From positions 296,174,001 to 296,238,000 of the forward strand of contig OZ024741.1 in assembly GCA_964016885.1 (NCBI GenBank): 64,000 nucleotides of DNA. Reading direction: 5' to 3'. The notes below the pieces were generated by a model. It searched no databases. It had not been told where the DNA came from and saw nothing but the letters and a program-made list of their open reading frames with translations. The position numbers and the translations under genes are program-made. Source of the DNA: Eledone cirrhosa (taxonomy: Eukaryota). Positions 16,701 through 57,352 of this stretch are shown here, in pieces. Numbering within the stretch: position 1 is the stretch's first letter; each line of letters starts with the position of its first letter.

Positions 16701-19700
16701 GGCCTATTATACCACCACCACCACCACCCTCCCCAACCTCAGTACTGGGCCTATTATACCACCACCACCCTCCCCAACCACAGTACTGGGCCTATTATAC
16801 CACCACCACCACCACCCTCCCCAACCTCAGTACTGGGCCTATTATACCACCAGCACCACCCTCCGCAACCACAGTACTGGGCCTATTATACCACCACCAC
16901 CACCACCCTCCCCAACCTCAGTACTGGGTCTATTATACCACCACCACCACCACCATCTCCAGCCTCAGTATTGGGCCTATTATACCACCACCACCCTCCC
17001 CAACCACAGTACTGGGCCTATTATACCACCACCACCACCACCCTCCCCAACCTCAGTACTGGGCCTATTATACCACCACCACCACCACCCTCCCCAACCT
17101 CAGTACTGGGCCTATTATACCACCACCACCACCACCATCTCCAGCCTCAGTACTGGGCCTATTATACCACCACCACCACCACCCTCCCCAACCACAGTAC
17201 TGGGCTTATTATACCACCACCACCACCACCACCCTCCGCAACCTCAGTACTGGGCCTATTATACCACCACCACCACCACCCTCTCCAGCCTCAGTACTGG
17301 GCCTATTATACCACCACCACCACCACCCTCCCCAACCTCAGTACTGGGCCTATTATAACACCACCACCACCCTCCCCAACCACAGTACTGGGCCAATTAT
17401 ACCACCACCACCACCACCCTCCCCAACCTCAGTACTGGGCCTATTATACCACCACCACCCTCCCCAACCACAGTACTGGGCCTATTATACCACCACCACC
17501 CTCCCCAACCTCAGTACTGGGCCTATTATACCACCACCACCACCACCATCTCCAGCCTCAGTACTGGGCCTATTATACCACCACCACCACCACCCTCCCC
17601 AACCTCAGTACTGGGCCTATTATACCACCACCACCACCACCATCTGCAGCCTCAGTACTGGGCCTATTATACCACCACCACCACCCTCCCCAACCTCAGT
17701 ACTGGGCCTATTATACCACCACCACCACCACCATCTCCAGCCTCAGTACTGGGCCTATTATACCACCACCACCACCACCATCTCCAGCCTCAGTACTGGG
17801 CCTATTATACCACCACCACCACCACCCTCCCCAACCTCAGTACTGGGCCTATTATACCACCACCACCACCACCGTCTCCAGCCTAAGTACTGGGCCTATT
17901 ATACCACCACCACCACCACCCTCCCCAACCTCAGTACTGGGCCTATTATACCACCACCACCACCACCATCTCCAGCCTCAGTACTGGGCCTATTATACCA
18001 CCACCACCACCCTCCCCAACCACAGTACTGGGCCTATTATACCACCACCACCACCACCACCATCTCCAGCCGAAGTACTGGGCCTATTATACCACCACCA
18101 CCACCACCCTCCCCAACCTCAGTACTGGGCCTATTATACCACCACCACCACCACTGTCTCCAGCCTAAGTACTGGGCCTATTATACCACCACCACCACCA
18201 CCCTCCCCAACCTCAGTACTGGGCCTATTATACCACCACCACCACCACCCTCCCCAACCTCAGTACTGGGCCTATTATACCACCACCACCACCACCCTCC
18301 CCAACCTCAGTACTGGGCCTATTATACCACCACCACCCTCCCCAACCTCAGTACTGGGCCTATTATACCACCACCATCACCACCACCACCCTCTACAGCC
18401 TCAGTACTGGGCCTATTATACCACCACCACCACCACCCTCTCCAGCCTCAGTACTGGGCCTATTATACCACCACCACCACCACCCTCCCCAACTTCAGTA
18501 CTGGGCCTATTATACCACCACCACCACCACCCTCCCCAACCTCAGTACTGGGTCTATTATACCACCACCACCACCACCATCTCCAGCCTCAGTACTGGGC
18601 CTATTATACCACCACCACCACCACCCTCCCCAACCACAGTACTGGGCCTATTATAACACCACCACCACCACCATCTCCAGCCTCAGTACTGGGCCTATTA
18701 TACCACCACCACCACCACCATCTCCAGCCTCAGTACTGGGCCTATTATACCACCACCACCACCACCCTCCCCAACCACAGTACTGGGCCTATTATAACAC
18801 CACCACCACCACCATCTCCAGCCTCAGTACTGGGCCTATTATACCACCACCACCACCACCATCTCCAGCCTCAGTACTGGGCCTATTATACCACCACCAC
18901 CACCACCATCTCCAGCCTCAGTACTGGGCCTATTATACCACCACCACCACCACCCTCCCCAACCACAGTACTGGGCCTATTATACCACCACCACCACCAC
19001 CCTCCCCAGCCTCAGTACTGGGCCTATTATACCACCACCACCACCACCATCTCCAGCCTCAGTACTGGGCCTATTATACCACCACCACCACCACCCTCCC
19101 CAACCACAGTACTGGGCCTATTATACCACCACCACCACCACCTTCCCCAGCCTCAGTACTGGGCCTATTATACCACCACCACCACCACCATCTCCAGCCT
19201 CAGTACTGGGCCTATTATACCACCACCACCACCACCATCTCCAGCCTCAGTACTGGGCCTATTATACCACCACCACCACCCTCCCCAACCACAGTACTGG
19301 GCCAATTATACCACCACCACCACCACCCTCCCCAACCTCAGTACTGGGCCTATTATACCACCACCACCCTCCCCAACCACAGTACTGGGCCTATTATACC
19401 ACCACCACCCTCCCCAACCTCAGTACTGGGCCTATTATACCACCACCACCACCACCATCTCCAGCCTCAGTACTGGGCCTATTATACCACCACCACCACC
19501 ACCATCTCCAGCCTCAGTACTGGGCCTATTATACCACCACCACCACCACCATCTCCAGCCTCAGTACTGGGCCTATTATACCACCACCACCACCACCCTC
19601 CCCAACCTCAGTACTGGGCCTATTATAACACCACCACCACCACCCTCCCCAACCACAGTACTGGGCCAATTATACCACCACCACCACCACCCTCCCCAAC

Positions 19701-22700
19701 CTCAGTACTGGGCCTATTATACCACCACCACCCTCCCCAACCACAGTACTGGGCCTATTATACCACCACCACCCTCCCCAACCTCAGTACTGGGCCTATT
19801 ATACCACCATCACCACCATCTCCAGCCTCAGTACTGGGCCTATTATACCACCACCACCACCACCCTCCCCAACCTCAGTACTGGGCCTATTATACCACCA
19901 CCACCACCACCATCTGCAGCCTCAGTACTGGGCCTATTATACCACCACCACCACCACCCTCCCCAACCTCAGTACTGGGCCTATTATACCACCACCACCA
20001 CCACCATCTCCAGCCTCAGTACTGGGCCTATTATACCACCACCACCACCACCATCTCCAGCCTCAGTACTGGGCCTATTATACCACCACCACCACCACCC
20101 TCCCCAACCTCAGTACTGGGCCTATTATACCACCACCACCACCACCGTCTCCAGCCTAAGTACTGGGCCTATTATACCACCACCACCACCACCCTCCCCA
20201 ACCTCAGTACTGGGCCTATTATACCACCACCACCATCTCCAGCCTCAGTACTGGGCCTATTATACCACCACCACCACCACCACCATCTCCAGCCTCAGTA
20301 CTGGGCCTATTATACCACCACCACCACCACCCTCCCCAACCTCAGTACTGGGCCTATTATACCACCACCACCACCACCCTCCCCAACCACAGTACTGGGC
20401 CTATTATACCATCACCACCACCACCCTCTCCAGCCTCAGTACTGGGCCTATTATACCACCACCACCACCACCCTCCCCAACCTCAGTACTGGGCCTATTA
20501 TACCACCACCACCACCACCACCATCTCCAGCCTCAGTACTGGGCCTATTATACCACCACCACCACCACCCTCCCCAACCTCAGTACTGGGCCTATTATAC
20601 CACCACCACCACCACCATCTCCAGCCTCAGTACTGGGCCTATTATACCACCACCACCACCACCATCTCCAGCCTCAGTACTGGGCCTATTATACCACCAC
20701 CACCACCACCCTCCCCAACCTCAGTACTGGGCCTATTATACCACCACCACCACCACCACCACCACCCTCTCCAGCCTCAGTACTGGGCCTATTATACCAC
20801 CACCACCACCACCATCTCCAGCCTCAGTACTGGGCCTATTATACCACCACCACCACCACCATCTCCAGCCTCAGTACCGGGCCTATTATACCACCACCAC
20901 CACCACCCTCCCCAACCTCAGTACTGGGCCTATTATACCACCACCACCACCACCATCTCCAGCCTCAGTACCGGGCCTATTATACCACCACCACCACCAC
21001 CCTCCCCAACCTCAGTACTGGGCCTATTATACCACCACCACCACCACCCTCCCCAACCTCAGTACTGGGCCTATTATACCACCACCACCACCACCACCAC
21101 CACCATCTCCAGCCTCAGTACCGGGCCTATTATACCACCACCATCACCACAATCTCCAGCCTCAGTACTGGGCCTATTATACCACCACCACCACCACCAC
21201 CACCATCTCCAGCCTCAGTACTGGGCCTATTATACCACCACCACCACCCTCCCCAACCACAGTACTGGGCCTATTATACCACCACCACCACCACCCTCCC
21301 CAACCTCAGTACTGGGCCTATTATACCACCACCACCACCACCCTCCCCAACCTCAGTACTGGGCCTATTATACCACCACCACCACCACCCTCCCCAACCT
21401 CAGTACTGGGCCTATTATACCACCACCACCCTCCCCAACCTCAGTACTGGGCCTATTATACCACCACCATCACCACCACCACCCTCTACAGCCTCAGTAC
21501 TGGGCCTATTATACCACCACCACCACCACCCTCTCCAGCCTCAGTACTGGGCCTATTATACCACCACCACCACCACCCTCCCCAACCTCAGTACTGGGCC
21601 TATTATACCACCACCACCCTCCCCAACCACAGTACTGGGCCTATTATACCACCACCACCACCACCCTCGCCAACCTCAGTACTGGGCCTATTATACCACC
21701 AGCACCACCCTCCGCAACCACAGTACTGGGCCTATTATACCACCACCACCACCACCCTCCCCAACCTCAGTACTGGGTCTATTATACCACCACCACCACC
21801 ACCATCTCCAGCCTCAGTATTGGGCCTATTATACCACCACCACCCTCCCCAACCACAGTACTGGGCCTATTATACCACCACCACCACCACCCTCCCCAAC
21901 CTCAGTACTGGGCCTATTATACCACCACCACCACCACCCTCCCCAACCTCAGTACTGGGCCTATTATACCACCACCACCACCACCATCTCCAGCCTCAGT
22001 ACTGGGCCTATTATACCACCACCACCACCACCCTCCCCAACCACAGTACTGGGCTTATTATACCACCACCACCACCACCACCCTCCCCAACCTCAGTACT
22101 GGGCCTATTATACCACCACCACCACCACCCTCTCCAGCCTCAGTACTGGGCCTATTATACCACCACCACCACCACCATCTCCAGCCTCAGTACTGGGCCT
22201 ATTATACCACCACCACCACCACCCTCCCCAACCTCAGTACTGGGCCTATTATAACACCACCACCACCCTCCCCAACCACAGTACTGGGCCAATTATACCA
22301 CCACCACCACCACCCTCCCCAACCTCAGTACTGGGCCTATTATACCACCACCACCCTCCCCAACCACACTACTGGGCCTATTATACCACCACCACCCTCC
22401 CCAACCTCAGTACTGGGCCTATTATACCACCACCACCACCACCATCTCCAGCCTCAGTACTGGGCCTATTATACCACCACCACCACCACCCTCCCCAACC
22501 TCAGTACTGGGCCTATTATACCACCACCACCACCACCATCTGCAGCCTCAGTACTGGGCCTATTATACCACCACCACCCTCCCCAACCTCAGTACTGGGC
22601 CTATTATACCACCACCACCACCACCATCTCCAGCCTCAGTACTGGGCCTATTATACCACCACCACCACCACCATCTCCAGCCTCAGTACTGGGCCTATTA

Positions 22701-25700
22701 TACCACCACCACCACCACCCTCACCAACCTCAGTACTGGGCCTATTATACCACCACCACCACCACCGTCTCCAGCCTAAGTACTGGGCCTATTATACCAC
22801 CACCACCACCACCACCCTCCCCAATCTCAGTACTGGGCCTATTATACCACCACCACCACCACCATCTCCAGCCTCAGTACTGGGCCTATTATACCACCAC
22901 CACCACCCTCCCCAACCACAGTACTGGGCCTATTATACCACCACCACCACCACCACCATCTCCAGCCTCAGTACTGGGCCTATTATACAACCACCACCAC
23001 CACCCTCCCCAACCTCAGTACTGGGCCTATTATACCACCACCACCACCACCGTCTCCAGCCTAAGTACTGGGCCTATTATACCACCACCACCACCACCCT
23101 CCCCAACCTCAGTACTGGGCCTATTATACCACCACCACAACCACCCTCCCCAACCTCAGTACTGGGCCTATTATACCACCACCACCACCACCCTCCCCAA
23201 CCTCAGTACTGGGCCTATTATACCACCACCACCCTCCCCAACCTCAGTACTGGGCCTATTATACCACCACCATCACCACCACCACCCTCTACAGCCTCAG
23301 TACTTGGCCTATTATACCACCACCACCACCACCCTCTCCAGCCTCAGTACTGGGCCTATTATACCACCACCACCACCACCCTCCCCAACCTCAGTACTGG
23401 GCCTATTATACCACCACCACCCTCCCCAACCACAGTACTGGGCCTATTATACCACCACCACCACCACCCTCCCCAACCTCAGTACTGGGTCTATTATACC
23501 ACCACCACCACCACCATCTCCAGCCTCAGTATTGGGCCTATTATACCACCACCACCCTGCCCAACCACAGTACTGGGCCTATTATACCACCACCACCACC
23601 ACCCTCCCCAACCTCAGTACTGGGCCTATTATACCACCACCACCACCACCATCTCCAGCCTCAGTACTGGGCCTATTATACCACCACCACCACCACCCTC
23701 CCCAACCACAGTACTGGGCCTATTATACCACCACCACCACCACCACCCTCCCCAGCCTCAGTACTGGGCCTATTATACCACCACCACCACCACCATCTCC
23801 AGCCTCAGTACTGGGCCTATTATACCACCACCACCACCACCCTCCCCAACCTCAGTACTGGGCCTATTATAACACCACCACCACCCTCCCCAACCACAGT
23901 ACTGGGCCAATTATACCACCACCACCACCACCCTCCCCAACCTCAGTACTGGGCCTATTATACCACCACCACCCTCCCCAACCACAGTACTGGGCCTATT
24001 ATACCACCACCACCCTCCCCAACCTCAGTACTGGGCCTATTATACCACCACCACCACCACCATCTCCAGCCTCAGTACTGGGCCTATTATACCACCACCA
24101 CCACCACCCTCCCCAACCTCAGTACTGGGCCTATTATACCACCACCACCACCACCATCTGCAGCCTCAGTACTGGGCCTATTATACCACCACCACCACCC
24201 TCCCCAACCTCAGTACTGGGCCTATTATACCACCACCACCACCACCATCTCCAGCCTCAGTACTGGGCCTATTATACCACCACCACCACCACCATCTCCA
24301 GCCTCAGTACTGGGCCTATTATACCACCACCACCACCACCCTCCCCAACCTCAGTACTGGGCCTATTATACCACCACCACCACCACCGTCTCCAGCCTAA
24401 GTACTGGGCCTATTATACCACCACCACCACCACCACCCTCCCCAACCTCAGTACTGGGCCTATTATACCACCACCACCATCTCCAGCCTCAGTACTGGGC
24501 CTATTATACCACCACCACCACCACCACCATCTCCAGCCTCAGTACTGGGCCTATTATACCACCACCACCACCACCCTCCCCAACCTCAGTACTGGGCCTA
24601 TTATACCACCACCACCACCACCCTCCCCAACCACAGTACTGGGCCTATTATACCACCACCACCACCACCCTCCCCAACCTCAGTACTGGGCCTATTATAC
24701 CACCACCATCACCACCATCTCCAGCCTCAGTACTGGGCCTATTATACCACCACCACCACCCTCCCCAACCACAGTACTGGGCCTATTATACCACCACCAC
24801 CACCACCATCTCCAGCCTCAGTACTGGGCCTATTATACCACCACCACCACCACCATCTCCAGCCTCAGTACTGGGCCTATTATACCACCACCACCACCAC
24901 CCTCCCCAACCTCAGTACTGGGCCTATTATACCACCACCACCACCACCATCTCCAGCCTCAGTACTGGGCCTATTATACCACCACCACCACCACCATCTC
25001 CTGCCTCAGTACTGGGCCTATTATACCACCACCACCACCACCCTCTCCAGCCTCAGTACTGGGCCTATTATACCACCACCACCACCACCATCTCCAGCCT
25101 CAGTACTGGGCCTATTATACCACCACCACCACCACCATCTCCAGCCTCAGTACTGGGCCTATTATACCACCACCACCACCACCATCTCCAGCCTCAGTAC
25201 TGGGCCTATTATACCACCACCACCACCACCATCTCCAGCCTCAGTACTGGGCCTATTATACCACCACCACCACCACCATCTCCAGCCTCAGTACTGGGCC
25301 TATTATACCACCACCACCACCACCCTCCCCAACCTCAGTACTGGGCCTATTATACCACCACCACCACCACCATCTCCAGCCTCAGTACTGGGCCTATTAT
25401 ACCACCACCACCACCCTCCCCAACCACAGTACTGGGCCTATTATACCACCACCACCACCATCTCCAGCCTCAGTACCGGGCCTATTATACCACCACCACC
25501 ACCACCCTCCCCAACCTCAGTACTGGGCCTATTATACCACCACCACCACCACCATCTCCAGCCTCAGTACTGGGCCTATTATACCACCACCACCACCACC
25601 CTCCCCAACCTCAGTACTGGGCCTATTATACCACCACCACCACCACCCTCCCCAACCTCAGTACTGGGCCTATTATACCACCACCACCACCACCACCACC

Positions 25701-30937: not shown

Positions 30938-32285
30938 TAATGAAAATAACACTTTCTTTATTGGCCACAAGGGCCGACATATAGGGGACAATACAAAAGA
31001 CAGGGACAGTTGGGGTTTACATGAATACGTGTAAACAATATAAATAACAATAAATAAGTAGAAAAATACAACAATGAAAATTCCCCAATAGGGGATAACC
31101 ACCCAGGGTCGACTCATGTACCCCACCAATCCTGAACCACCCGACACTTCATGGGCACCCGGGAAGGACACGCCTCTCCTCCTCCAATTCACCAGCCTAC
31201 AGGCGCCTGATCAGAGAGGCCCACTCACACGGGCCATTCTCACCACATTCACCCACCGTTTAGCAAATGTACTAGGGGCAGCACTTCTCTCTCCACCCTC
31301 ACCTTCCTTTCCAAGTGAAACTTGATGAGGGCTTGGCCGAGGAGGAAAGTCTTCAGACTTTTCAGTAGCACCCACCACACAACATCTTTCGCTACATCTA
31401 TCAGACTGAGGAAAACTGCCTGCTCTTCCCGACCAAAAGAAGGCGACGAGGCGATCTTCACTATAGACTCGGATCCGTCCCACACGCGATAACAGCTGTT
31501 CGACATAACTACATAAGTTAGCATACACGGGCACTGGACGAATGCGTGCAAAACAGTTTCATCGCTCTGCGCGTATCTCGGACAGGTCCCTCTGACAGTC
31601 CTACCGTGCATGTAGAAATTATCTCGAACCAGCAGGGTTCCTCGGTAGCACTGCCAAGCGAGGGATTTCTGGAAATTGTCTATAGTCCCCGGCTCGAAAA
31701 TCCTCCGGAAAAGACTGGCTAGAATCTCTCCGAGAGCGTCGTCACACTTGCCGAAAAACTAATCCTCTATAGCACTCTAGAGTGGAAGTTCCACTGACTG
31801 CATTGCCCACTTTGTAGAGGGCAGTTAGTGCCTGGCAACATTCCTGATGCTAAGCACCCAGTCTCGGTTTCTTTTTGACCCAGAACTGCAGCTCAGTCAG
31901 AGAGACAAGCTGCGGAAAGGCCCGTCTCACAAACAGCGACCACACCTGTTCACCGTTAAGGCAGAATATCTGGAGATACCACAGCATCAGCGCATGTTTG
32001 CTTATCATTAGCCACGGCATGCCAAGCCCTCCGCGTACAGGGTACTGACAGCAGATGGACCGCCTCACCAACGGAACCTATCCCCTCCACAAGAATTTGA
32101 AGAGGAACCGCTCCAATTTGGTGAGGCACGAGTACGGGGGCAAGGCACGACGGTCAGGCGGTAGTAGATGACGGACGCGATGTATGCGTCCGCTACATCC
32201 ACCCGACTTTTCAGAGACAGCTTCCTCGCAGCCCACTTCTGAGTGAGAGTGGCCACCCTGATCGTAACTTCATCCCAATTTCTAT
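30938..32285 (-). mobile_element. 3' fragment of the Tx1/L1-type LINE family
   Basis: The minus-strand translations NWDEVTIRVATLTQKW...YIASVIYYRLTVVPC, GGLGMPWLM and CPRYAQSDETVLHAFVQC match 12420-13206. AATAAA lies near 30957-30962 on the minus strand. Confidence 0.9.
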
Positions 32286-32673
32286 CCACATGGATAGTCA
32301 GGCTGGCTGTTTTTGAAACTAACATACAATAGACATCACCGCTCAGCCTGTTTTCCTCTATTACCTCTTCTTACCTTCTTCTTTGCCTGTATGTTGGACT
32401 ACACTCCTTGTTATTCTCTTCTGTTTTACTATTTCCCTCCTTTCTATATTTTTTTCTCCTTTGGCTAAACCGTTGAGCACTATATTTTTGTAATTTTCCT
32501 AATGGTATAATATGTTTCTACCTGTTTTGTTATGTCCCAATGTGCACTGGAATGAACGGTTAGACCTTGAAGAACCGAAACCGTAGTGATTCCCTGAAGT
32601 CGACTCAGGAGATGGGATTGTCTGTCTTTCCGTTGATTTTTTTTTGCATTGTTTTTTCCTGTGCGCCTCTACT

Positions 32674-32711
<38 letters not shown>

Positions 32712-32717
<6 letters not shown>

Positions 32718-35700
32718 GTTAAAAATGTACATCCACATATGTATACTGAAATACTAGTATGCATATGAATACACACACGTATACATATGTAGATGTACCG
32801 AGTTTTTCACTGGTCACTTTACTGTGCGTGTCCAGCTATTCTGTATGTAAACACACAGACAAACCGGTTTTTAGAGTCATACTGGTTTTTGAGGAAACAC
32901 CTTTCCTCTATTCTCCAGAAAGCCAGACAAGGAATATTGAACTAGTTTCGATGTTGTTACATCTCATCAGCAATATTTACCTATCTTCCGGCCTCTCTAG
33001 AGAATCGTAAAAGCACATATCGTTATATGCTTTTTCTATGAAAATTAGTAGTGGGCAGACTAATTTGCATAGAGTGTGAGTACGTACCGGTTCAACGGAG
33101 ACGATAAAAACAAATAACGAAACGAAATTAAATTTCGTTTCGTTTGTAACTCACTTTTGTATGACTGACGCTTAAACAATTAAGTTAAAAATGTACATCC
33201 ACATATGTATACTGAAATACTAGTATGCATATGAATACACACACGTATACATATGTAGATGTACCGAGTTTTTCACTGGTCACTTTACTGTGCGTGTCCA
33301 GCTATTCTGTATGTAAACACACAGACAAACCGGTTTTTAGAGTCATACTGGTTTTTGAGGAAACACCTTTCCTCTATTCTCCAGAAAGCCAGACAAGGAA
33401 TATTGAACTAGTTTCGATGTTGTTACATCTCATCAGCAATATTTACCTATCTTCCGGCCTCTCTAGAGAATCGTAAAAGCACATATCGTTATATGCTTTT
33501 TCTATGAAAATTAGTAGTGGGCAGACTAATTTGCATAGAGTGTGAGTACGTACCGGTTCAACGGAGACGATAAAAACAAATAACGAAACGAAATTAAATT
33601 TCGTTTCGTTTGTAACTCACTTTTGTATGACTGACGCTTAAACAATTAAGTTAAAAATGTACATCCACATATGTATACTGAAATACTAGTATGCATATGA
33701 ATACACACACGTATACATATGTAGATGTACCGAGTTTTTCACTGGTCACTTTACTGTGCGTGTCCAGCTATTCTGTATGTAAACACACAGACAAACCGGT
33801 TTTTAGAGTCATACTGGTTTTTGAGGAAACACCTTTCCTCTATTCTCCAGAAAGCCAGACAAAGAATATTGAACTAGTTTCGATGTTGTTACATCTCATC
33901 AGCAATATTTACCTATCTTCCGGCCTCTCTAGAGAATCGTAAAAGCACATATCGTTATATGCTTTTTCTATGAAAATTAGTAGTGGGCAGACTAATTTGC
34001 ATAGAGTGTGAGTACGTACCGGTTCAACGGAGACGATAAAAACAAATAACGAAACGAAATTAAATTTCGTTTCGTTTGTAACTCACTTTTGTATGACTGA
34101 CGCTTAAACAATTAAGTTAAAAATGTACATCCACATATGTATACTGAAATACTAGTATGCATATGAATACACACACGTATACATATGTAGATGTACCGAG
34201 TTTTTCACTGGTCACTTTACTGTGCGTGTCCAGCTATTCTGTATGTAAACACACAGACAAACCGGTTTTTAGAGTCATACTGGTTTTTGAGGAAACACCT
34301 TTCCTCTATTCTCCAGAAAGCCAGACAAGGAATATTGAACTAGTTTCGATGTTGTTACATCTCATCAGCAATATTTACCTATCTTCCGGCCTCTCTAGAG
34401 AATCGTAAAAGCACATATCGTTATATGCTTTTTCTATGAAAATTAGTAGTGGGCAGACTAATTTGCATAGAGTGTGAGTACGTACCGGTTCAACGGAGAC
34501 GATAAAAACAAATAACGAAACGAAATTAAATTTCGTTTCGTTTGTAACTCACTTTTGTATGACTGACGCTTAAACAATTAAGTTAAAAATGTACATCCAC
34601 ATATGTATACTGAAATACTAGTATGCATATGAATACACACACGTATACATATGTAGATGTACCGAGTTTTTCACTGGTCACTTTACTGTGCGTGTCCAGC
34701 TATTCTGTATGTAAACACACAGACAAACCGGTTTTTAGAGTCATACTGGTTTTTGAGGAAACACCTTTCCTCTATTCTCCAGAAAGCCAGACAAGGAATA
34801 TTGAACTAGTTTCGATGTTGTTACATCTCATCAGCAATATTTACCTATCTTCCGGCCTCTCTAGAGAATCGTAAAAGCACATATCGTTATATGCTTTTTC
34901 TATGAAAATTAGTAGTGGGCAGACTAATTTGCATAGAGTGTGAGTACGTACCGGTTCAACGGAGACGATAAAAACAAATAACGAAACGAAATTAAATTTC
35001 GTTTCGTTTGTAACTCACTTTTGTATGACTGACGCTTAAACAATTAAGTTAAAAATGTACATCCACATATGTATACTGAAATACTAGTATGCATATGAAT
35101 ACACACACGTATACATATGTAGATGTACCGAGTTTTTCACTGGTCACTTTACTGTGCGTGTCCAGCTATTCTGTATGTAAACACACAGACAAACCGGTTT
35201 TTAGAGTCATACTGGTTTTTGAGGAAACACCTTTCCTCTATTCTCCAGAAAGCCAGACAAGGAATATTGAACTAGTTTCGATGTTGTTACATCTCATCAG
35301 CAATATTTACCTATCTTCCGGCCTCTCTAGAGAATCGTAAAAGCACATATCGTTATATGCTTTTTCTATGAAAATTAGTAGTGGGCAGACTAATTTGCAT
35401 AGAGTGTGAGTACGTACCGGTTCAACGGAGACGATAAAAACAAATAACGAAACGAAATTAAATTTCGTTTCGTTTGTAACTCACTTTTGTATGACTGACG
35501 CTTAAACAATTAAGTTAAAAATGTACATCCACATATGTATACTGAAATACTAGTATGCATATGAATACACACACGTATACATATGTAGATGTACCGAGTT
35601 TTTCACTGGTCACTTTACTGTGCGTGTCCAGCTATTCTGTATGTAAACACACAGACAAACCGGTTTTTAGAGTCATACTGGTTTTTGAGGAAACACCTTT

Positions 35701-36664
35701 CCTCTATTCTCCAGAAAGCCAGACAAGGAATATTGAACTAGTTTCGATGTTGTTACATCTCATCAGCAATATTTACCTATCTTCCGGCCTCTCTAGAGAA
35801 TCGTAAAAGCACATATCGTTATATGCTTTTTCTATGAAAATTAGTAGTGGGCAGACTAATTTGCATAGAGTGTGAGTACGTACCGGTTCAACGGAGACGA
35901 TAAAAACAAATAACGAAACGAAATTAAATTTCGTTTCGTTTGTAACTCACTTTTGTATGACTGACGCTTAAACAATTAAGTTAAAAATGTACATCCACAT
36001 ATGTATACTGAAATACTAGTATGCATATGAATACACACACGTATACATATGTAGATGTACCGAGATTTTCACTGGTCACTTTACTGTGCGTGTCCAGCTA
36101 TTCTGTATGTAAACACACAGACAAACCGGTTTTTAGAGTCATACTGGTTTTTGAGGAAACACCTTTCCTCTATTCTCCAGAAAGCCAGACAAGGAATATT
36201 GAACTAGTTTCGATGTTGTTACATCTCATCAGCAATATTTACCTATCTTCCGGCCTCTCTAGAGAATCGTAAAAGCACATATCGTTATATGCTTTTTCTA
36301 TGAAAATTAGTAGTGGGCAGACTAATTTGCATAGAGTGTGAGTACGTACCGGTTCAACGGAGACGATAAAAACAAATAACGAAACGAAATTAAATTTCGT
36401 TTCGTTTGTAACTCACTTTTGTATGACTGACGCTTAAACAATTAAGTTAAAAATGTACATCCACATATGTATACTGAAATACTAGTATGCATATGAATAC
36501 ACACACGTATACATATGTAGATGTACCGAGTTTTTCACTGGTCACTTTACTGTGCGTGTCCAGCTATTCTGTATGTAAACACACAGACAAACCGGTTTTT
36601 AGAGTCATACTGGTTTTTGAGGAAACACCTTTCCTCTATTCTCCAGAAAGCCAGACAAGGAATA
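32712..36664 (-). repeat. Tandem array of 8 full + 1 partial (225 bp) 466-bp hammerhead-containing units (retrozyme-like)
   Basis: Units start at 32712 + 466n. Only two substitutions were noticed across the array (about 33863 and 36065). Each full unit has one HHR. The left end abuts (TA)n. Confidence 0.95.
32933..32977 (-). ncRNA. Minimal type I hammerhead ribozyme, first of 8 (others start at 33399, 33865, 34331, 34797, 35263, 35729, 36195)
   Basis: Minus strand reads AATATTG-CTGATGA-GATGT aaca ACATC-GAAA-CTAG-TT-CAATATT. It has a perfect 7-bp stem I, a 5-bp stem II, an intact core and the palindromic stem III ACTAGT. The GUU cleavage site falls between 32940 and 32939. Confidence 0.9.
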
Positions 36665-36762
36665 CCTTAGAGTAATAACATTACGTTTAGACAGCTTTGC
36701 AAATTGAAAATTGCCACCGGTAAGCCAGCCGCAGGGACCAAAGCAACGAGAAAACTGACTCA

Positions 36763-36856
<94 letters not shown>

Positions 36857-37364
36857 ATACTTGGGGAGGGTCATATTTGTGTAATATTGCCAGAATTAAG
36901 AACAGAACACACTCACTGTTCGGTTGGTTTTCGCTTTTCGCTTCTGTGTCTTTTATATCGGTAATTTAATTTATTCGGTCCTCAATGTTGCCATTGACTG
37001 ACCAACGGTCAAAAATAATACAGATACAATATAGACACAAACACATATATATAGTTTATCATAAATCTTTCGTTGCACATCTGCAACATCGTCAGTGGTG
37101 CTATTGTTTCCTCCTGTTGAATTGTATGGCTACGCCATTTTTTTCAGTCTGTCTATATATTTATTTATTTATTTGCTTGTTTGTTTATTTTATTTTGTCT
37201 TCTTTGCGCATGCGTTTGCGTGTGTGTATAGTGTTTTGTTTGATGTGTGATGTGTGTTCGTGATTGGGTGACTAATGTGTGTTTATGTGTTTGTTGTTAT
37301 TGTGCTTGTGTATGTATTTATTTATTTATTTATTTATTTATTTTATTTTATTTTATTTACTTAT

Positions 37365-38046
37365 TTATACTTCTCTTAGGTCAGTGTTGTTTGTTTGGGT
37401 GTTGTTGTTATTCCATTCATTCTTTCTGTTTAGTCTTGGTCTTCTAAGTTCTATTTCACTGGCCTCTCTGATTTGCCTATCTGCTGGGTCATTTCTATGT
37501 TTAGATATTATTCTAATTTCTATGTTGTCTATGTTACCGTCATGTTGTTGTCTGGCATGTTCGTATAGTACTGACCCGTTTTTTCGTCCTTTTAGTTCCC
37601 CCCAATGTTGGTCTATCCTTTCACCTATGCTACGAGCTGTCTCACCTATGTATGTTGTTGTCATGTTTCTGCAGGTACCCTCTGTACATCTTATGCTATA
37701 GACTACGTTTCTAGTTTTACAGTTTATCCGGTGCTTTACCTTACATATGATACACTTCCTATTGGTACAGTGGGTTTTCTTAAAAGGGTAGGTTTTGGTG
37801 ATCAGGGATTTTATGGTGGTTCCTGGCTTTTCTACCACCTTAATTTTTAAGTGGGTCTTTCTCAGGGCCTTTCTACACTGGTTAGCTAATTTCCCTCCAG
37901 GGGTAGCGTCCACAAACATGATACTCTGGTATCTCTGGTTGTCGTACCATGAGGTGGCTTTCCCTATCTTATGTCTAGCCCTATCTAAGCTATTCCATGA
38001 TTTGCTCCTGTATAATGGGCAAATTCCTTTCATGTCCAGTTCTATG
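37365..38046 (-). pseudogene. Inverted duplicate of the PLE GIY-YIG coding region
   Basis: The 222-aa ORF is almost identical to the C-terminus of ORF 38615-39982. Confidence 0.92.
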
Positions 38047-39982
38047 CCAACAACTTCCAGGCGTCTAACAATGGCATACTACCCTTGTATGGGTTCCGCA
38101 AAGACCACAAGACAGTCGACGACCCGACAACAGGACCACCAACAAGACCCGTATGCGGAGCTAATATAGCTAGTAACTACAGGATCTCCTACTTCCTCTC
38201 AATGGTTATACGCCCCATAATCAAGATGTCCCCGGATGTATGTGACAGTACAGAGTACCTCCTCAGCAGAATCAGTGAGTGCAACAAAAACAGGAACCTA
38301 TCCAACTGCATAATAGGCAGCATGGATGTTGTGTCACTGTACCCATCCATTAACATTGATTTTGCTGTGAAAAAATGTGTGGAGATGATCATTGAGAGTG
38401 AGGTGGAGTTCTGCGACGTCGACACAGACGAACTGGGCCTCCTACTTAGACTTACCTACGACACTGACTACCTAGACAGCCATGACCTTAGACGTTTCTG
38501 CCCTAGTAGACCCATAAGAGGTAGACCCCCCACCATAACCTCAATGGCAAAAAAGACTCCCATGGGTGGACCAAAGCTATACGGACCCCCCAAAACAATG
38601 ATCAGGTAAGAAAAATGGTCGCACATGCAATAGGAGCTAGTATCAAAACTACCCTCAAGGGCCACATATTTAAGTTCAACGAGAAGATCTACACCCAAAA
38701 TGAAGGAGCAGCCATTGGCGTCAGCATAGCTGATGATGTTGCCAACCTTTTCATGGTTTGGTGGGAAAGGAGACTTAAATATCTCCTTAATGAGAGCTCC
38801 ATAGACCTCATCATGTACTCTCGTTATGTAGACGATATCAATATAGTTATAAGAACATCCCCACTAGAGAGCACTAACAAGTTTGATTTAGAACGTAGCA
38901 CAATGGAAAGCATCCAGCAGATAGCTAATTCCATACACCAGAGTATAACTGTAACTATCGACTTCCCTTCCAAACACCCTAACAATAGACTACCTGTATT
39001 AGACACAGAACTCTGGATTAACACTATAGACGAGAGAGCCCAAATTCTCCACTCACACTATGCTAAACCCATGGCCTCCAAATACCTGATACTCAAAAAC
39101 TCAGCAATGTCCAGTAGTGCTAAGTTTAATATTCTGATCGCAGATTTGGTACGAGTGATGAAGAATGTGTCCCGCATGTGCGATCCAACAGAAATGGAAA
39201 GACACATCCAACACTTCATCAACCGCATGCAGTTCTCTGGCTACAACCAAAGAGACAGAGTCAGAGTATACGAAGGAGCCATGGAGAAGTATAAGACCCT
39301 CATAGAACTGGACATGAAAGGAATTTGCCCATTATACAGGAGCAAATCATGGAATAGCTTAGATAGGGCTAGACATAAGATAGGGAAAGCCACCTCATGG
39401 TACGACAACCAGAGATACCAGAGTGTCATGTTTGTGGACGCTACCCCTGGAGGGAAATTAGCTAACCAGTGTAGAAAGGCCCTGAGAAAGACCCACTTAA
39501 AAATTAAGGTGGTAGAAAAGCCAGGAACCACCATAAAATCCCTGATCAGCAAAACCTACCCTTTTAAGAAAACCCACTGTACCAATAGGAAGTGTATCAT
39601 ATGTAAGGTAGAGCCCCGGATAAACTGTAAAACTAGAAACGTAGTCTATAGCATAAGATGTACAGAGGGTACCTGCAGAAACATGACAACAACATACATA
39701 GGTGAGACAGCTCGTAGCATAGGTGAAAGGATAGACCAACATTGGGGGGAACTAAAAGGACGAAAAAACGGGTCAGTACTATACGAACATGCCAGACAAC
39801 AACATGACGGTAACATAGACAACATAGAAATTAGAATAATATCTAAACATAGAAATGACCCAGCAGATAGGCAAATCAGAGAGGCCAGTGAAATAGAACT
39901 TAGAAGACCAAGACTAAACAGAAAGAATGAATGGAATAACAACAACACCCAAACAAACAACACTGACCTAAGAGAAGTATAA
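38047..39982 (+). pseudogene. PLE reverse transcriptase + C-terminal GIY-YIG endonuclease (5'-truncated, one frameshift near 38545-38615)
   Basis: RT motifs: PLYGFRKDHK, RPVCG, MDVVSLYPSI, QNEGAAIG, YSRYVDD, LPVLD. Linker CTNRKCIIC...NC. GIY-YIG motifs: NVVYSIRC...YIGETARSIGERIDQH...REASEI...PRLN. Confidence 0.93.
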
Positions 39983-40256
39983 ATAAGTAAATAAAATAAA
40001 ATAAAATAAATAAATAAATAAATAAATAAATAAATACATACACAAGCACAATAACAACAAACACATAAACACACATTAGTCACCCAATCACGAACACACA
40101 TCACACATCAAACAAAACACTATACACACACGCAAACGCATGCGCAAAGAAGACAAAATAAAATAAACAAACAAGCAAATAAATAAATAAATATATAGAC
40201 AGACTGAATAAAAATGGCGTAGCCATACAATTCAACAGGAGGAAACAATAGCACCA

Positions 40257-40296
40257 CTGACGATGTTGCAGATGTGCAACGAAAGATTTATGATAA
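40257..40296 (+). ncRNA. HHR-like core in the PLE pLTR (inverted copy about 37056-37095)
   Basis: CTGACGA-t-GTTGCA gatg TGCAAC-GAAA followed by a bulged stem III ending in CUA. The stem I partner is not adjacent, so the fold is incomplete. Confidence 0.45.
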
Positions 40297-40568
40297 ACTA
40301 TATATATGTGTTTGTGTCTATATTGTATCTGTATTATTTTTGACCGTTGGTCAGTCAATGGCAACATTGAGGACCGAATAAATTAAATTACCGATATAAA
40401 AGACACAGAAGCGAAAAGCGAAAACCAACCGAACAGTGAGTGTGTTCTGTTCTTAATTCTGGCAATATTACACAAATATGACCCTCCCCAAGTATAACAA
40501 TATTTGTTTCGACACACGATTTCATATAAAAAACCTCGCAAAACTAAATCACCGCCGTTATATATATA

Positions 40569-49901: not shown

Positions 49902-50444
49902 AAAGAGAAAGTAGTGTTATTCGTGGTAGTGGTGGCTGTGATTGTGGTAGTGTTGGTTGCGATGGTTGTGGTAGTTGCGGTTGTGGGGTGGGGGTTGTGG
50001 TAGTGATGGTTTTGGTGGTAGGGGTCGTGGTGGTTGTGGTAGTGGTTATTATGGTAGTGGTGATTGTGGTAGTGGTGGTGGTGGTTGCGGTAGTGATGGT
50101 TGTGGTAGTGATGGTAGTGGTGGTAGTGGTGGTTGTGGTAGTGATGGTTTTGGTGGTAGTGGTCTGGTGATTGTGGTAGTGGTGGTTGTGGTGGTTGTAG
50201 TGGTTTTGTTAGTGGTGGTGGTGGTTGTGGCAATGATGGTTGGTGATTGTTGGTGATTGTGGTAGTGGTGATGGTAGTAGTGGTTGTGGTAGTTGTGGTA
50301 GTGGTGATGGTAGTAGTGGTTGTGGTAGTTGTGGTAGTGGTGGATGTGATCGTGGTAGTGTTGGTTGTGGTGGTTGTGGTAGTGGTGATCGTGATAGTGG
50401 TGATTGTGGTAGTGATGATTGTGATAGTGATGATTGTGGAAGTT

Positions 50445-53400
50445 GAGGTAGTGGTAGTAGTGGTTGTGACAGTGGTGGCTGAGGTGGTGGTAGTAGTGGT
50501 TGTGACAGTGGTGGTTGTGGTAGTGGTAGTAGTGGTTGTGACAGTGGTGGTTGAGGTGGTGGTAGTAGTGGTTGTGACAGTGGTGGCTGAGGTGGTGGTA
50601 GTAGTGGTTGTGACAGTGGTGGTTGAGGTGGTGGTAGTAGTGGTTGTGACAGTGGTGGATGTGGAAGTGGTAGTAGTGGTTGTAACAGTGGTGGTTGTGG
50701 TGGTGGTAGTAGTGGTTATGACAGTGGTGGTTGTGGTAGTGGTAGTAGTGGTTGTGACAGTGGTGGTTGAGGTGGTGGTAGTAGTGGTTGTGACAGTGGT
50801 GGTTGTGGTAATGGTAGTAGTGGTTGTGACAGTGGTGGTTGTGGTAGTGGTAGTAGTGGTTGTGACAGTGGTGGTTGTGGTAATGGTAGTAGTGGTTGTG
50901 ACAGTGGTGGTTGAGGTGGTGGTAGTAGTGGTTGTGACAGTGGTGGTTGTGGTAATGGTAGTAGTGGTTGTGACAGTGGTGGTTGTGGTAGTGGTAGTAG
51001 TGGTTGAGACAGTGGTGGTTGTGGTAGTGGTAGTAGTGGTTGTGACAGTGGTGGTTGTGGTAATGGTAGTAGTGGTTGTGACAGTGGTGGTTGAGGTGGT
51101 GGTAGTAGTGGTTGTGACAGTGGTGGTTGTGGTAATGGTAGTAGTGGTTGTGACAGTGGTGGTTGAGGTGGTGGTAGTAGTGGTTGTGACAGTGGTGGTT
51201 GTGGTAATGGTAGTAGTGGTTGTGACAGTGGTGGTTGTGGTAGTGGTAGTAGTGGTTGAGACAGTGGTGGTTGTGGTAGTGGTAGTAGTGGTTGTGACAG
51301 TGGTGGTTGAGGTAGTGGTAGTAGTGGTTGTGACAGTGGTGGTTGTGGTAATGGTAGTAGTGGTTGTGACAGTGGTGGTAGTGGTAGTGGTAGTAGTGGT
51401 TGTGACAGTGGTGGTTGTGGTAATGGTAGTAGTGGTTGTGACAGTGGTGGTTGAGGTGGTGGTAGTAGTGGTTGTGACAGTGGTGGTTGAGGTAGTGGTA
51501 GTAGTGGTTGTGACAGTGGTGGTTGAGGTGGTGGTAGTAGTGGTTGTGACAGTGGTGGTTGTGGTAATGGTAGTAGTGGTTGTGACAGTGGTGGTTGAGG
51601 TGGTGGTAGTAGTGGTTGTGACAGTGGTGGTTGTGGTAATGGTAGTAGTGGTTGTGACAGTGGTGGTTGAGGTAGTGGTAGTAGTGGTTATGACAGTTGT
51701 GGTTGTGGTAGTGGTAGTAGTGGTTGTGACAGTGGTGGTTGAGGTGGTGGTAGTAGTGGTTGTGACAGTGGTGGTTGTGGTAGTGGTAGTAGTGGTTATG
51801 ACAGTTGTGGTTGTGGTAGTGGTAGTAGTGGTTGTGACAGTGGTGGTTGAGGTGGTGGTAGTAGTGGTTGTGACAGTGGTGGTTGAGGTAGTGGTAGTAG
51901 TGGTTATGACAGTTGTGGTTGTGGTAGTGGTAGTAGTGGTTGTGACAGTGGTGGTTGAGGTGGTGGTAGTAGTGGTTGTGACAGTGGTGGTTGTGGTAAT
52001 GGTAGTAGTGGTTGTGACAGTGGTGGTTGTGGTAGTGGTAGTAGTGGTTATGACAGTGGTGGTTGTTGTAGTGGTAGTAGTGGTTGTGACAGAGGTGGTT
52101 GAGGTGGTGGTAGTAGTGGTTGTGACAGTGGTGGTTGTGGTAGTGGTAGTAGTGGTTGTGACAGTGGTGGTTGAGGTGGTGGTAGTAGTGGTTGTGACAG
52201 TGGTGGTTGTGGTAGTGGTAGTAGTGGTTGTGACAGTGGTGGTTGAGGTGGTGGTAGTAGTGGTTGTGACAGTTGTGGTTGTGGTAGTGGTAGTAGTGGT
52301 TGTGACAGTGGTGGTTGAGGTGGTGGTAGTAGTGGTTGTGACAGTGGTGGTTGTGGTAATGGTAGTAGTGGTTGTGACAGTGGTGGTTGTGGTAGTGGTA
52401 GTAGTGGTTATGACAGTGGTGGTTGTTGTAGTGGTAGTAGTGGTTGTGACAGAGGTGGTTGAGGTGGTGGTAGTAGTGGTTGTGACAGTGGTGGTTGAGG
52501 TAGTGGTAGTAGTGGTTATGACAGTGGTGGTTGAGGTGGTGGTAGTAGTGGTTGTGACAGTGGTGGTAGTGGTGGTGGTAGTAGTGGTTGTGACAGTGGT
52601 GGTTGTGGTAATGGTAGTAGTGGTTGTGACAGTGGTGGTTGTTGTAGTGGTAGTAGTGGTTGTGACAGAGGTGGTTGAGGTGGTGGTAGTAGTGGTTGTG
52701 ACAGTGGTGGTTGTGGTAGTGGTAGTAGTGGTTGTGACAGTGGTGGTTGAGGTGGTGGTAGTAGTGGTTTTGACAGTTGTGGTTGTGGTAGTAGTGGTTG
52801 TGACAGTGGTGGTTGTGGTAGTGGTAGTAGTGGTTGTGACAGTGGTGGTTGTGGTAGTGGTAGTAGTGGTTGTGACAGTGGTGGTTGAGGTGGTGGTAGT
52901 AGTGGTTGTGACAGTGGTGGTTGTGGTAGTGGTAGTAGTGGTTGTGACAGTGGTGGTTGAGGTGGTGGTAGTAGTGGTTGTGACAGTGGTGGTTGTGGTA
53001 ATGGTAGTAGTGGTTGTGACAGTGGTGGTTGTTGTAGTGGTAGTAGTGGTTGTGACAGAGGTGGTTGAGGTGGTGGTAGTAGTGGTTGTGACAGTGGTGG
53101 TTGTGGTAGTGGTAGTAGTGGTTGTGACAGTGGTGGTTGAGGTAGTGGTAGTAGTGGTTGTGACAGTGGTGGTTGAGGTAGTGGTAGTAGTGGTTGTGAC
53201 AGTGGTGGTAGTGGTGGTGGTAGTAGTGGTTGTGACAGTGGTGGTTGAGGTAGTGGTAGTAGTGGTTGTGACAGTGGTGGTTGTGGTAGTGGTAGTAGTG
53301 GTTGTGACAGTGGTGGTTGAGGTAGTGGTAGTAGTGGTTGTGACGGGGCTGGTTGTGGGAGTGGTAGTGGTAGTTGTGACAGTGGTGGTTGAGGTAGTCG

Positions 53401-56400
53401 TAGTAGTGGTTGTGACAGTGGTGGTTGAGGTAGTGGTAGTAGTGGTTGTGACAGTGGTGGTTGAGGTAGTGGTAGTAGTGGTTGTGACAGTGGTGGTTGT
53501 GGTAGTGGTAGTAGTGGTTGTGACAGTGGTGGTTGTGGTAGTGGTAGTAGTGGTAGTGACAGTGGTGGTTGAGGTAGTGGTAGTAGTGGTTGTGACAGTG
53601 GTGGTTGTGGTAGTGGTAGTAGTGGTTGTGACAGTGGTGGTTGAGGTAGTGGTAGTAGTGGTTGTGACAGTGGTGGTTGAGGTAGTGGTAGTAGTGGTTG
53701 TGACTGTGGTGGTTGAGGTGGTGGTAGTAGTGGTTGTGACAGTGGTGGTTGAGGTAGTGGTAGTAGTGATTGTGACAGTGGTGGTTGTAGTAGTGGTAGT
53801 AGTGGTTGTGACAGTGGTGGTTGTGGTAGTGGTAGTAGTGGTTGTGACAGAGGTGGTAGTGGTAGTGGTAGTAGTGGTTGTGACAGTGGTGGTTGTGGTA
53901 GTGGTAGTAGTGGTTGTGACAGTGGTGGTTGTGGTAATGGTAGTAGTGGTTGTGACACTGGTGGTAGTGGTGGTGGTAGTAGTGGTTGTGACAGTGGTGG
54001 TAGTGGTAGTGGTAGTAGTGGTTGTGACAGTGGTGGTTGTGGTAGTGGTAGTAGTGGTTGTGACAGTGGTGGTTGTGGTAATGGTAGTAGTGGTTGTGAC
54101 AGTGGTGGTAGTGGTGGTGGTAGTAGTGGTTGTGACAGTGGTGGTAGTGGTAGTGGTAGTAGTGGTTGTGACAGTGGTGGTAGTGGTAGTGGTAGTAGTG
54201 GTTGTGACAGTGGTGGTTGTGGTAATGGTAGTAGTGGTTGTGACAGTGGTGGTAGTGGTGGTGGTAGTAGTGGTTGTGACAGTGGTGGTAGTGGTAGTGG
54301 TAGTAGTGGTTGTGACAGTGGTGGTAGTGGTGGTGGTAGTAGTGGTTGTGACAGTGGTGGTTGTGGTAATGGTAGTAGTGGTTGTGACAGTGGTGGTAGT
54401 GGTGGTGGTAGTAGTGGTTGTAACAGTGGTGGTTGTGGTAGTGGTAGTAGTGGTTGTGACAGTGGTGGTTGTGGTAGTGGTAGTGGTAGTAGTGGTTGTG
54501 ACAGTGGTGGTAGAGGTAGTGGTAGTAGTGGTTGTGACAGAGGTGGTAGTGGTGGTGGTAGTAGTGGTTGTAACAGTGGTGGTTGAGGTAGTGGTAGTAG
54601 TGGTTGTGACAGTGGTGGTTGTGGTAGTGGTAGTAGTGGTTGTGACAGTGGTGGTAGTGGCAGTGGTAGTAGTGGTTGTGACAGTGGTGGTAGTGGTAGT
54701 GGTAGTAGTGGTTGTGACAGTGGTGGTTGAGGAAGTGGTAGTAGTGGTTGTGACAGTTGTGGTTGTGGTAGTGGTAGTAGTGTTTGTGACAGTGGTGGTT
54801 GTGGTAGTGGTAGTAGTGGTTGTGACAGTGGTGGTTGAGGTAGTGGTATTAGTGGTTGTGACAGTGGTGGTTGTGGTAGTGGTAGTAGTGGTTGTGACAG
54901 TGGTGGTTGTGGTAGTGGTAGTAGTGGTTGTGACAGTGGTGGTTGAGGTAGTGGTATTAGTGGTTGTGACAGTGGTGGTTGTGGTAGTGGTAGTAGTGGT
55001 TGTGACAGTGGTGGTTGTGGTAGTGGTAGTAGTGGTTGTGACAGTGGTGGTTGTGGTAGTGGTAGTAGTGGTTGTGACAGTGGTGGTTGTGGTAATGGTA
55101 GTAGTGGTTGTGACAGTGGTGGTTGAGGTAGTGGTATTAGTGGTTGTGACAGTGGTGGTTGTGGTAGTGGTAGTAGTGGTTGTGACAGTGGTGGTTGTGG
55201 TAGTGGTAGTAGTGGTTGTGACAGTGGTGGTTGTGGTAGTGGTAGTAGTGGTTGTGACAGTGGTGGTTGTGGTAGTGGTAGTAGTGGTTGTGACAGTGGT
55301 GGTTGTGGTAATGGTAGTAGTGGTTGTGACAGTGGTGGTTGAGGTAGTGGTAGTAGTGGTTATGACAGTGGTGGTTGAGGTGGTGGTAGTAGTGGTTGTG
55401 ACAGTGGTGGTAGTGGTGGTGGTAGTAGTGGTTGTGACAGTGGTGGTTGAGGTAGTGGTAGTAGTGGTTGTGACAGTGGTGGTAGTGGTGGTGGTAGTAG
55501 TGGTTGTGACAGTGGTGGTTGTGGTGGTGGTAGTAGTGGTTGTGACAGTGGTGGTAGAGGTAGTGGTAGTAGTGGTTGTGACAGTGGTGGTAGAGGTAGT
55601 GGTAGTAGTGGTTGTGACAGTGGTGGTTGAGGTGGTGGTAGTAGTGGTTGTGACAGTGGTGGTAGTGGTGGTGGTAGTAGTGGTTGAGACAGTGGTGGTT
55701 GTGGTAATGGTAGTAGTGGTTGTGACAGTGGTGGTAGTGGTGGTGGTAGTAGTGGTTGTGACAGTGGTGGTTGAGGTGGTGGTAGTAGTGGTTGTGACAG
55801 TGGTGGTAGTGGTAGTGGTAGTAGTGGTTGTGACAGTGGTGGTAGTGGTAGTGGTAGTAGTGGTTGTGACAGTGGTGGTTGTGGTAATGGTAGTAGTGGT
55901 TGTGACAGTGGTGGTAGTGGTAGTGGTAGTAGTGGTTGTGACAGTGGTGGTAGTGGTAGTGGTAGTAGTGGTTGTGACAGTGGTGGTTGTGGTAATGGTA
56001 GTAGTGGTTGTGACAGTGGTGGTTGTGGTAGTGGTAGTAGTGGTTGTGACAGTGGTGGTAGTGGTAGTGGTAGTAGTGGTTGTGACAGTGGTGGTAGTGG
56101 TAGTGGTAGTAGTGGTTGTGACAGTGGTGGTAGTGGTAGTGGTAGTAGTGGTTGAGACAGTGGTGGTAGTGGTAGTGGTAGTAGTGGTTGTGACAGTGGT
56201 GGTTGTGGTAGTGGTAGTAGTGGTTGTGACAGTGGTGGTTGTGGTAGTGGTAGTAGTGGTAGTGGTAGTGGTAGTAGTGGTTGTGACAGTGGTGGTAGTG
56301 TTGGTGGTAGTAGTGGTTGTGACAGTGGTGGTTGTTGTAGTGGTGGTGGTAGTGGTTGTGACAGAGGCGGTTGTGGCAGTGGTAGTAGTGGTTGTGACAG

Positions 56401-57352
56401 TGGTGGTAGTGTTGGTGGTAGTAGTGGTTGTGACAGTGGTGGTTGTGGTAGTGGTAGTAGTGGTTGTGACAGAGGCGGTTGTGGCAGTGGTAGTAGTGGT
56501 TGTGACAGTGGTGGTAGTGTTGGTGGTAGTAGTGGTTGTGACAGTGGTAGTAGTGGTGGTGGTAGTAGTGGTTGTGACAGAGGTGGTAGTGGTAGTGGTA
56601 GTAGTGGTTGTGACAGTGGTGGTAGTGGTGGTGGTAGTAGTGGTTGTGACAGAGGTGGTAGTGGTGGTGGTAGTAGTGGTTGTGACAGAGGTGGTAGTGG
56701 TGGTGGTAGTAGTGGTTGTGACAGAGGTGGTAGTGGTGGTGGTAGTAGTGGTTGTGACAGAGGTGGTAGTGGTGGTGGTAGTAGTGGTTGTGACAGAGGT
56801 GGTAGTGGTGGTGGTAGTAGTGGTTGTGACAGAGGTGGTAGTGGTGGTGGTAGTAGTGGTTGTGACAGTGGTGGTTGTGGTGGTGGTAGTAGTGGTTGTG
56901 ACAGTGGTGGTAGTGGTGGTGGTAGTAGTGGTTGTGACAGAGGTGGTAGTGGTGGTGGTAGTAGTGGTTGTGACAGTGGTGGTTGTGGTGGTGGTAGTAG
57001 TGGTTTCGACAGTGGTGGTAGTGGTGGTGGTAGTAGTGGTTGTGACAGAGGTGGTAGTGGTGGTGGTAGTAGTGGTTGTGACAGTGGTGGTTGTGGTGGT
57101 GGTAGTAGTGGTTGTGACAGTGGTGGTAGTGGTGGTGGTAGTAGTGGTTGTGACAGTGGTGGTAGTGGTGGTGGTAGTAGTGGTTGTGACAGAGGTGGTA
57201 GTGGTGGTGGTAGTAGTGGTTGTGACAGTGGTGGTTGTGGTGGTGGTAGTAGTGGTTGTGACAGTGGTGGTAGTGGTGGTGGTAGTAGTGGTTGTGACAG
57301 AGGTGGTAGTGGTGGTGGTAGTAGTGGTTGTGACAGTGGTGGTTGTGACAGA
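50445..57352. repeat. 6.9 kb satellite with a 36-bp unit (gtgacagtggtggttgtggtagtggtagtagtggtt)
   Basis: About 190 units. The minus strand reads (VTTTTTTTTTTT)n and the plus strand (TVVVVVVVVVVV)n. Confidence 0.97.

Follow-up and report, generated by a model that had tools for sequence, protein, structure and literature searches.

The window analysed here (the whole 64-kb stretch of DNA) contains a retrozyme array made of 8.5 units of 466 bp, with its RNA sense on the minus strand. The features of the array and its right-hand neighbours are listed below; unit positions are numbered so that +1 is the base right after the predicted GUU cut.

32678 to 32712, no strand: (AT)n target microsatellite adjoining the RNA-sense 3' end of the array
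32712 to 36664, minus strand: retrozyme arm, 8.5 units of 466 bp, running from unit position 228 back to +4
36202 to 36239, minus strand: last complete type I hammerhead, assigned on sequence, spacing, folds and core invariance; the motif recurs every 466 bp down to 32940
36663 to 36664, no strand: 2-nt microhomology at the array's 5' junction
36665 to 36764, plus strand: 100-nt internal piece of family X, a second dispersed (TA)n-anchored repeat
36765 to 36852, no strand: (TA)n run between the family X piece and the Penelope-like element
36852 to 40558, plus strand: 5'-truncated Penelope-like element with a reverse transcriptase (RT) plus a GIY-YIG-type domain at the C terminus, frame broken

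The unit is a short, low-GC (167/466, 36%), non-coding tandem repeat that is dispersed over many loci. Eight hammerhead cores were found in the focal array at a spacing of exactly 466 bp. The last complete one consists of a stem I 5' strand, CUGAUGA, stem II, GAAA, a minimal palindromic stem III and GUU, and its predicted cut falls between 36202 and 36201. An Rfam scan of this hammerhead returned nothing at the gathering score. Among about 211 family arms, core positions were about 100% conserved, the base at the cut was U or C only, and the allele counts of a stem II pair matched (122/89). The predicted fold contains a long helix formed by unit positions 1-30 and about 404-435 (z -5.7 and -10.9). 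Judged from its sequence, the hammerhead of the focal unit is predicted to self-cleave. Elsewhere in the window, a minus-strand fragment at 31000-32300 resembles, by eye, the 3' portion of an RT gene from a non-LTR retrotransposon, and large minisatellites with a strong strand skew occupy 13733-25694, 49923-57347 and 59029-60593 (periods of 47 bp, 36/72 bp and 71 bp).

We take the neighbouring open reading frame to be Penelope-like from motifs read in its translation. Its look-alikes in Atlas carry RT and GIY-YIG families; Pfam and PDB searches with it gave nothing significant. The element sits between two (TA)n runs and its inverted arm (36852-38046) begins about 59 nt inside the forward 3' end, leaving a 59-nt tail; this insertion geometry is also that of the retrozyme family. 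The 3' 600 nt of this one element showed no likeness to the retrozyme unit (best E 0.24), and this comparison yielded no autonomous partner whose terminal repeat matches. A degenerate, minimal hammerhead-like motif lies within it near 40257, and close copies of the element were seen near retrozyme arms at four other loci (L100, L157, L205 and L228).

At its RNA-sense 3' end the focal array starts at unit position 228, the "short" one of two fixed starts, and abuts the (AT)n run. At the other end, identity to the unit stops at 36664 (unit position +4), and the base after the next predicted cut would be 36667. The original prediction had placed the array end 3 nt from this cut; its coordinates were right, and the offset is amended to 3-5 nt (an end at +4 to +6) because of the 2-nt microhomology with family X: in 16 of 19 copies of family X the same two bases as at the array end stand just before the joined segment. 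On the side facing the array, other copies of this repeat extend about 92 nt further and carry a TA run (82-99 nt upstream of the junction point in 17/19 of them), and the focal copy lacks both. The junction was found once in the whole genome, and a chimeric source element was rejected on that ground. The inverted partner arm that is usual in the retrozyme family is also missing from the focal locus. Family X itself is non-coding, (TA)n-anchored and has a fixed end, with a period of about 577 bp at two loci (L034, L038) and 1,403 first-look candidates genome-wide; no hammerhead motif was found in the scanned pieces (36665-36764 of the window and L032-L050).

The patterns of the unit ends matched the genome 399 times (position 228), 440 times (233) and 2,266 times (302), a few of these being substitutions inside arrays, and the family comprises about 2,300 or more insertions. 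We sampled 180 loci, taking all 100 matches listed for position 228 and, for position 302, 80 of the 100 listed; loci already covered, large clustered arrays and the last entry were skipped. One locus (L179) was dropped as a duplicate of L178; 178 loci yielded 303 arms, 5 of which were censored, giving 298 5' ends in a sample that misses arms under 28 nt. The insertions have their 3' starts at two fixed places in the unit (226-234 and 296-303), abutting (TA)n, and the 3' flank was A/T-rich in 303/306 arms. Target-site duplications are unreadable in such (TA)n targets, and the right flank of the focal array is another repeat. An apparent third fixed end at unit position 50 was an artefact of hit cutting, its pattern giving only 3 matches.

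Most insertions consist of two tail-out arms, one per start. An inverted arm adjoins 241/303 arms, and arms under 28 nt adjoin several more. All 114 complete inverted pairs combined one start at 226-234 with one at 296-303, and partner arms shared variants, differing by a median of 0.5% as against 3.2% between loci (88 pairs). The two 5' ends of an insertion were not correlated (10 vs 7.6), and nine long arms stopped at the start of the other primer (226-236). Most arms (213/298, 71%) traverse at least one cleavage site with the core intact. The 33 rare fixed variants included 10 A>G and 4 T>C changes, numbers too small to judge editing scars by. The family also has a second subfamily, which shares about 90% identity with the focal unit, carries a small insertion close to position 326 and begins at the same pair of 3' starts (examples are L160, L162, L165, L174 and L178).

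An ordinary satellite, generated by unequal crossing-over at the DNA level and having chance ends, would leave unexplained the fixed 3' starts at thousands of dispersed loci, the paired arms and the invariant catalytic core, and the seven complete focal units carry only two private (unshared) substitutions in all. Long arrays do occur more often than a geometric tail allows (at least 8 crossings in 7 of the 218 crossing arms, at a step ratio of about 0.41-0.45), and one large array of the same family (L014-L018, G000:C1:81.85-81.88 Mb) shows a recurring, shorter variant unit, as in higher-order repeats. These two observations indicate that DNA-level expansion occurs in the family. We consider it highly improbable that the focal array arose in this way, and we rejected unequal crossing-over as its origin because fixed starts on (TA)n, tail-out paired arms with common variants and an invariant core need an RNA step. 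An RNA-mediated origin of the family is thus well supported by family-wide features, and the focal end contributes nothing to it. The original prediction had set an RNA origin against unequal crossing-over; the RNA origin stands and the exclusivity does not, because a later change in unit number keeps the phase of the ends and the two processes are compatible. Another large array with recurring variant units lies at G000:C1:95.94-95.97 Mb, and the variant-unit arrays suggest higher-order expansion of DNA after insertion.

The closeness of the focal end to the predicted cut had been considered unlikely by chance. Among the sampled loci, 5/298 ends lay within 3 nt of the site where 4.3 were expected, and in a family of about 2,300 or more insertions such a coincidence is unremarkable. 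The 5' breakpoints at other loci, proposed earlier as a check, were scattered over the whole unit (270/298 outside +1..+25), yet their density stepped up at the site. There were 28 ends at +1..+25 (15.8 expected) and 5 at 442-466 (15.2 expected), the largest up-step in the unit (25-nt windows; scan-corrected p 0.003), ranking 1-5 of 466 cuts for windows of 15-50 nt. This step was first spotted in the first 60 loci, and in the 120 held-out loci it was 13 vs 4 (p 0.028), while the excess at +1..+25 alone was unreplicated (13 vs 10.4 expected, p 0.24). Ends were scarce at 400-466, which comprises the partner strand of the helix and the core (22 vs 39.5 expected), indicating that structure or a joining bias also shapes the distribution.

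Junctions were also counted genome-wide in five 14-nt windows, with normalisation for anchor frequency (taken from the 180-locus sample) and capture, and with indels and duplicates removed by eye.

462 to +9: 43 matches, 41 true; density 0.6 of the control mean
+10 to +23: 123 matches, about 110 true (100 seen); density 1.5-1.8 of the control mean
444 to 457: 60 matches, 51 true; density 0.5 of the control mean
57 to 70 (control): 80 matches, 72 true; density 0.8 of the control mean
355 to 368 (control): 99 matches, 97 true; density 1.2 of the control mean

The excess sat at +7 to +23, with 25 ends at +7..+9 (14.4 expected), and the density at +10..+23 was only 1.2-1.6 times that of the higher of the two controls. 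Ends within 3 nt of the site (464..+4) were about threefold rarer than at the mid-unit controls (11 vs 33.7 expected), as were ends at +1..+6 rare (8 vs 28.9 expected). Given these window counts, the focal end at +4..+6 falls in a sparse zone and marks no peak.

The original prediction had attributed the focal end to hammerhead cleavage. A cDNA that ran off a hammerhead-made 5' end or nick, on a multimer whose only cut was the 5' one or on a circle cleaved during copying, would have to have lost 3-5 nt on joining. This small offset speaks for it, as do the up-step at the site (28 vs 5), the apparent existence of cleaved templates at other loci, the position of the focal end within the short stretch where such templates end, and the fact that 8 of the 12 arms ending at 462..+9 after an earlier crossing do so between 464 and +6. 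A hammerhead whose stem III is minimal could plausibly leave a nine-unit linear RNA cut solely at the 5' end. However, the focal arm reads through 8 intact predicted sites, and an insert from cleaved RNA is expected to have an arm that stays inside one monomer and stops at +1 or just within it. The ±3-nt interval held no excess in the sample and a threefold deficit genome-wide. Previously crossed arms ended at +1..+9 less often than controls predict (9 vs 22 expected, 0.4 of the control density; 9 vs 11.7 at the density of the adjacent core window), and arms with at least three crossings stopped near the site twice in 101 arrivals. The junction itself is unique, carries microhomology and joins the array, with no partner arm, to an unrelated repeat truncated by about 92 nt. 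We regard a cleavage-set focal end as doubtful.

We consider it likely instead that a Penelope-like RT copied an uncut, probably circular RNA 8.5 times into (TA)n, and that the array end results from end-joining or a later deletion and not from a cut. The eight intact sites crossed imply that the template was a circle or an uncut multimer, or that the array grew later, placing the focal arm in what would be the read-through class. Microhomology, a truncated repeat and a missing partner arm favour end-joining or later deletion; about 92 nt of family X, its TA run and the partner arm of the array would have been lost at or after insertion. Neither an empty site nor a second haplotype was seen. 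The focal junction itself supports neither an RNA origin nor cleavage in vivo.

Copies at other loci carry better evidence of cleavage. Of 41 near-site ends, 29 belonged to first-pass arms, which had never crossed a site, and 12 to crossed arms, against a baseline of 49% first-pass (p 0.004). The partner arm was confined to one monomer in 21/26 first-pass cases and in 0/10 crossed ones (Fisher p 1e-5; 67/228 in the sample as a baseline), although one microhomology junction recurs in 5 of these 21 confined pairs. Thirteen arms at 12 loci stuttered, repeatedly re-copying about five bases at +7..+9. All 13 were first-pass (p 2e-4), and none traverses an intact site. Four of them then stopped exactly at +1 (L263, L269, L271 and L275). 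Only two loci contained core-less units; they have four junctions between them, each linking 438/439 to +1. The first (L261, G000:C1:218585943-218588973) is a two-armed insert whose long arm shows six stutters near +8, passes from +1 to 438 and from +1 to 439, and ends at +1; its two junctions differ, and its tandem units were formed without the catalytic core. The second (L262, G000:C5:81644760-81647789) is a single arm with two identical junctions. It holds two copies of a shortened unit without 136-235 (including the short start site) and without the core (439-466), and resembles what copying a small circle devoid of the core would give. No similar deletions spanning a control hairpin were found. 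The second subfamily yielded 0 core-less junctions, there were likewise 0 with left breaks lying later, and the pattern for re-copying from +1 gave 0 matches.

A cleaved linear monomer as template would explain the arms that never cross a site, that stutter, that stop at +1 or that jump from there to 438/439. On the simplest reading, such monomers were the template for a few percent of insertions, given some 8 stops in excess among 234 first-pass arrivals. The excess at +7..+23 and the stutter could also reflect stalling at the folded ribozyme or extended stem I of uncut RNA, or a transcription start near +1. Positions 1-30 do lie in the long helix, the peak is 7-23 nt inside the site and not at +1, the scarcity of ends at 400-466 is unexplained by run-off alone, and one arm (L263) stuttered and then continued to +1. 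However, other helices showed no excess of ends on the helix arm met first (ratio 0.97 vs 1.14), and a barrier should act at every pass, whereas the 13 stuttering arms were all first-pass and the partner arms confined. Core-less junctions and post-stutter ends exactly at +1 (L261, L262, L269, L271, L275) also argue against stalling, two of these ends carrying 3-nt microhomology. We consider stalling or a nearby start unlikely. The original prediction of genomic evidence for cleavage in vivo thus fails at the focal junction and gains moderate support from copies elsewhere. We hold the cleavage reading of this minority class as moderately probable, because the stutter and partner-arm tests were designed after the data were seen, a junction was reused, and structure or joining bias contributes to the ends.

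The focal-unit family is newly found among the non-LTR retrozymes and bears the insertion footprint of Penelope elements. In the parts of Cervera and de la Pena 2020 (PMC7229834) and of Li, Clavereau and Pollet 2026 (10.64898/2026.07.22.740005) drawn on here, metazoan non-LTR retrozymes are described as tandem, low-GC, non-coding units, each with a type I hammerhead, for which copying of circular RNA by a Penelope-like RT is the proposed route. The family shares these features, and the weak palindromic stem III of the focal hammerhead resembles the axolotl motif described there. Its 466-bp unit compares with 150-450 (PMC7229834) and 51-972 (10.64898/2026.07.22.740005). Insertion ends are mapped here (two fixed starts, paired arms and a minority of copies that seem templated by cut linear monomers), and the same parts of the two papers contain no such mapping. 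A search of the open-access literature, supplements aside, found no published mapped retrozyme ends, linear templates or template jumping.

As far as the sections used here go, endonuclease-containing Penelope-like elements have an inverted 5'-truncated copy and a one-sided "tail" (Craig et al. 2021, PMC8557442; PMC3846280), and Poseidon from Anolis has two internal RT starts, with both target strands extended in vitro (Frangieh et al. 2024, PMC11167929). The retrozymes resemble them in the AT-rich target, the tail at one end only and the head-to-head inversion (PMC8557442; PMC3846280; PMC11167929). They differ in having no open reading frame, a tail of 69-74 nt as against 30-40, and strict pairing of starts (114/114). 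The portion of Frangieh et al. (PMC11167929) considered here describes uncut RNA as the dominant substrate, cleavage as dispensable in vitro, and no RNA-seq reads ending at the cleavage site. Our read-through majority matches this preference for uncut RNA; unlike the RNA-seq reads of that study, some of the genomic copies here, a minority, have ends or jumps at +1.

In L1 twin priming, too, two primers on a single RNA yield inverted, tail-out arms; unlike in L1, the second start here is fixed and not variable. Short, repeated re-copying near a template boundary recalls realignment of the telomerase type, but here it is a rare junction accident and not a programmed repeat.

Collectively, we propose that a Penelope-like RT likely inserts this non-coding hammerhead retrozyme into (TA)n runs, where both nicked target strands would prime on the same RNA, the arms that traverse the site having been copied from a circle or an uncut multimer. 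Conceivably, though we think it improbable, the RT copies cleaved, unligated monomers held together by stem I, jumping from the cut 5' end to the monomer's own 3' end and re-copying a few bases telomerase-style if it hesitates. If so, tandem arrays, the focal one included, would need no covalent circle; precise jumps would be invisible and imprecise ones would be kept as core-less junctions, such as the two different ones in a row at L261.

These results bear on whether the hammerheads of Penelope-type elements and animal retrozymes cut in vivo, and on whether cut or circular RNA is the template for transposition. The genomic copies fall into two sets: most read through the site, and a small group shows signs of copying from cut linear templates. 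This split yields testable predictions: a 5'-OH at +1, and stutter on linear, not circular, RNA.
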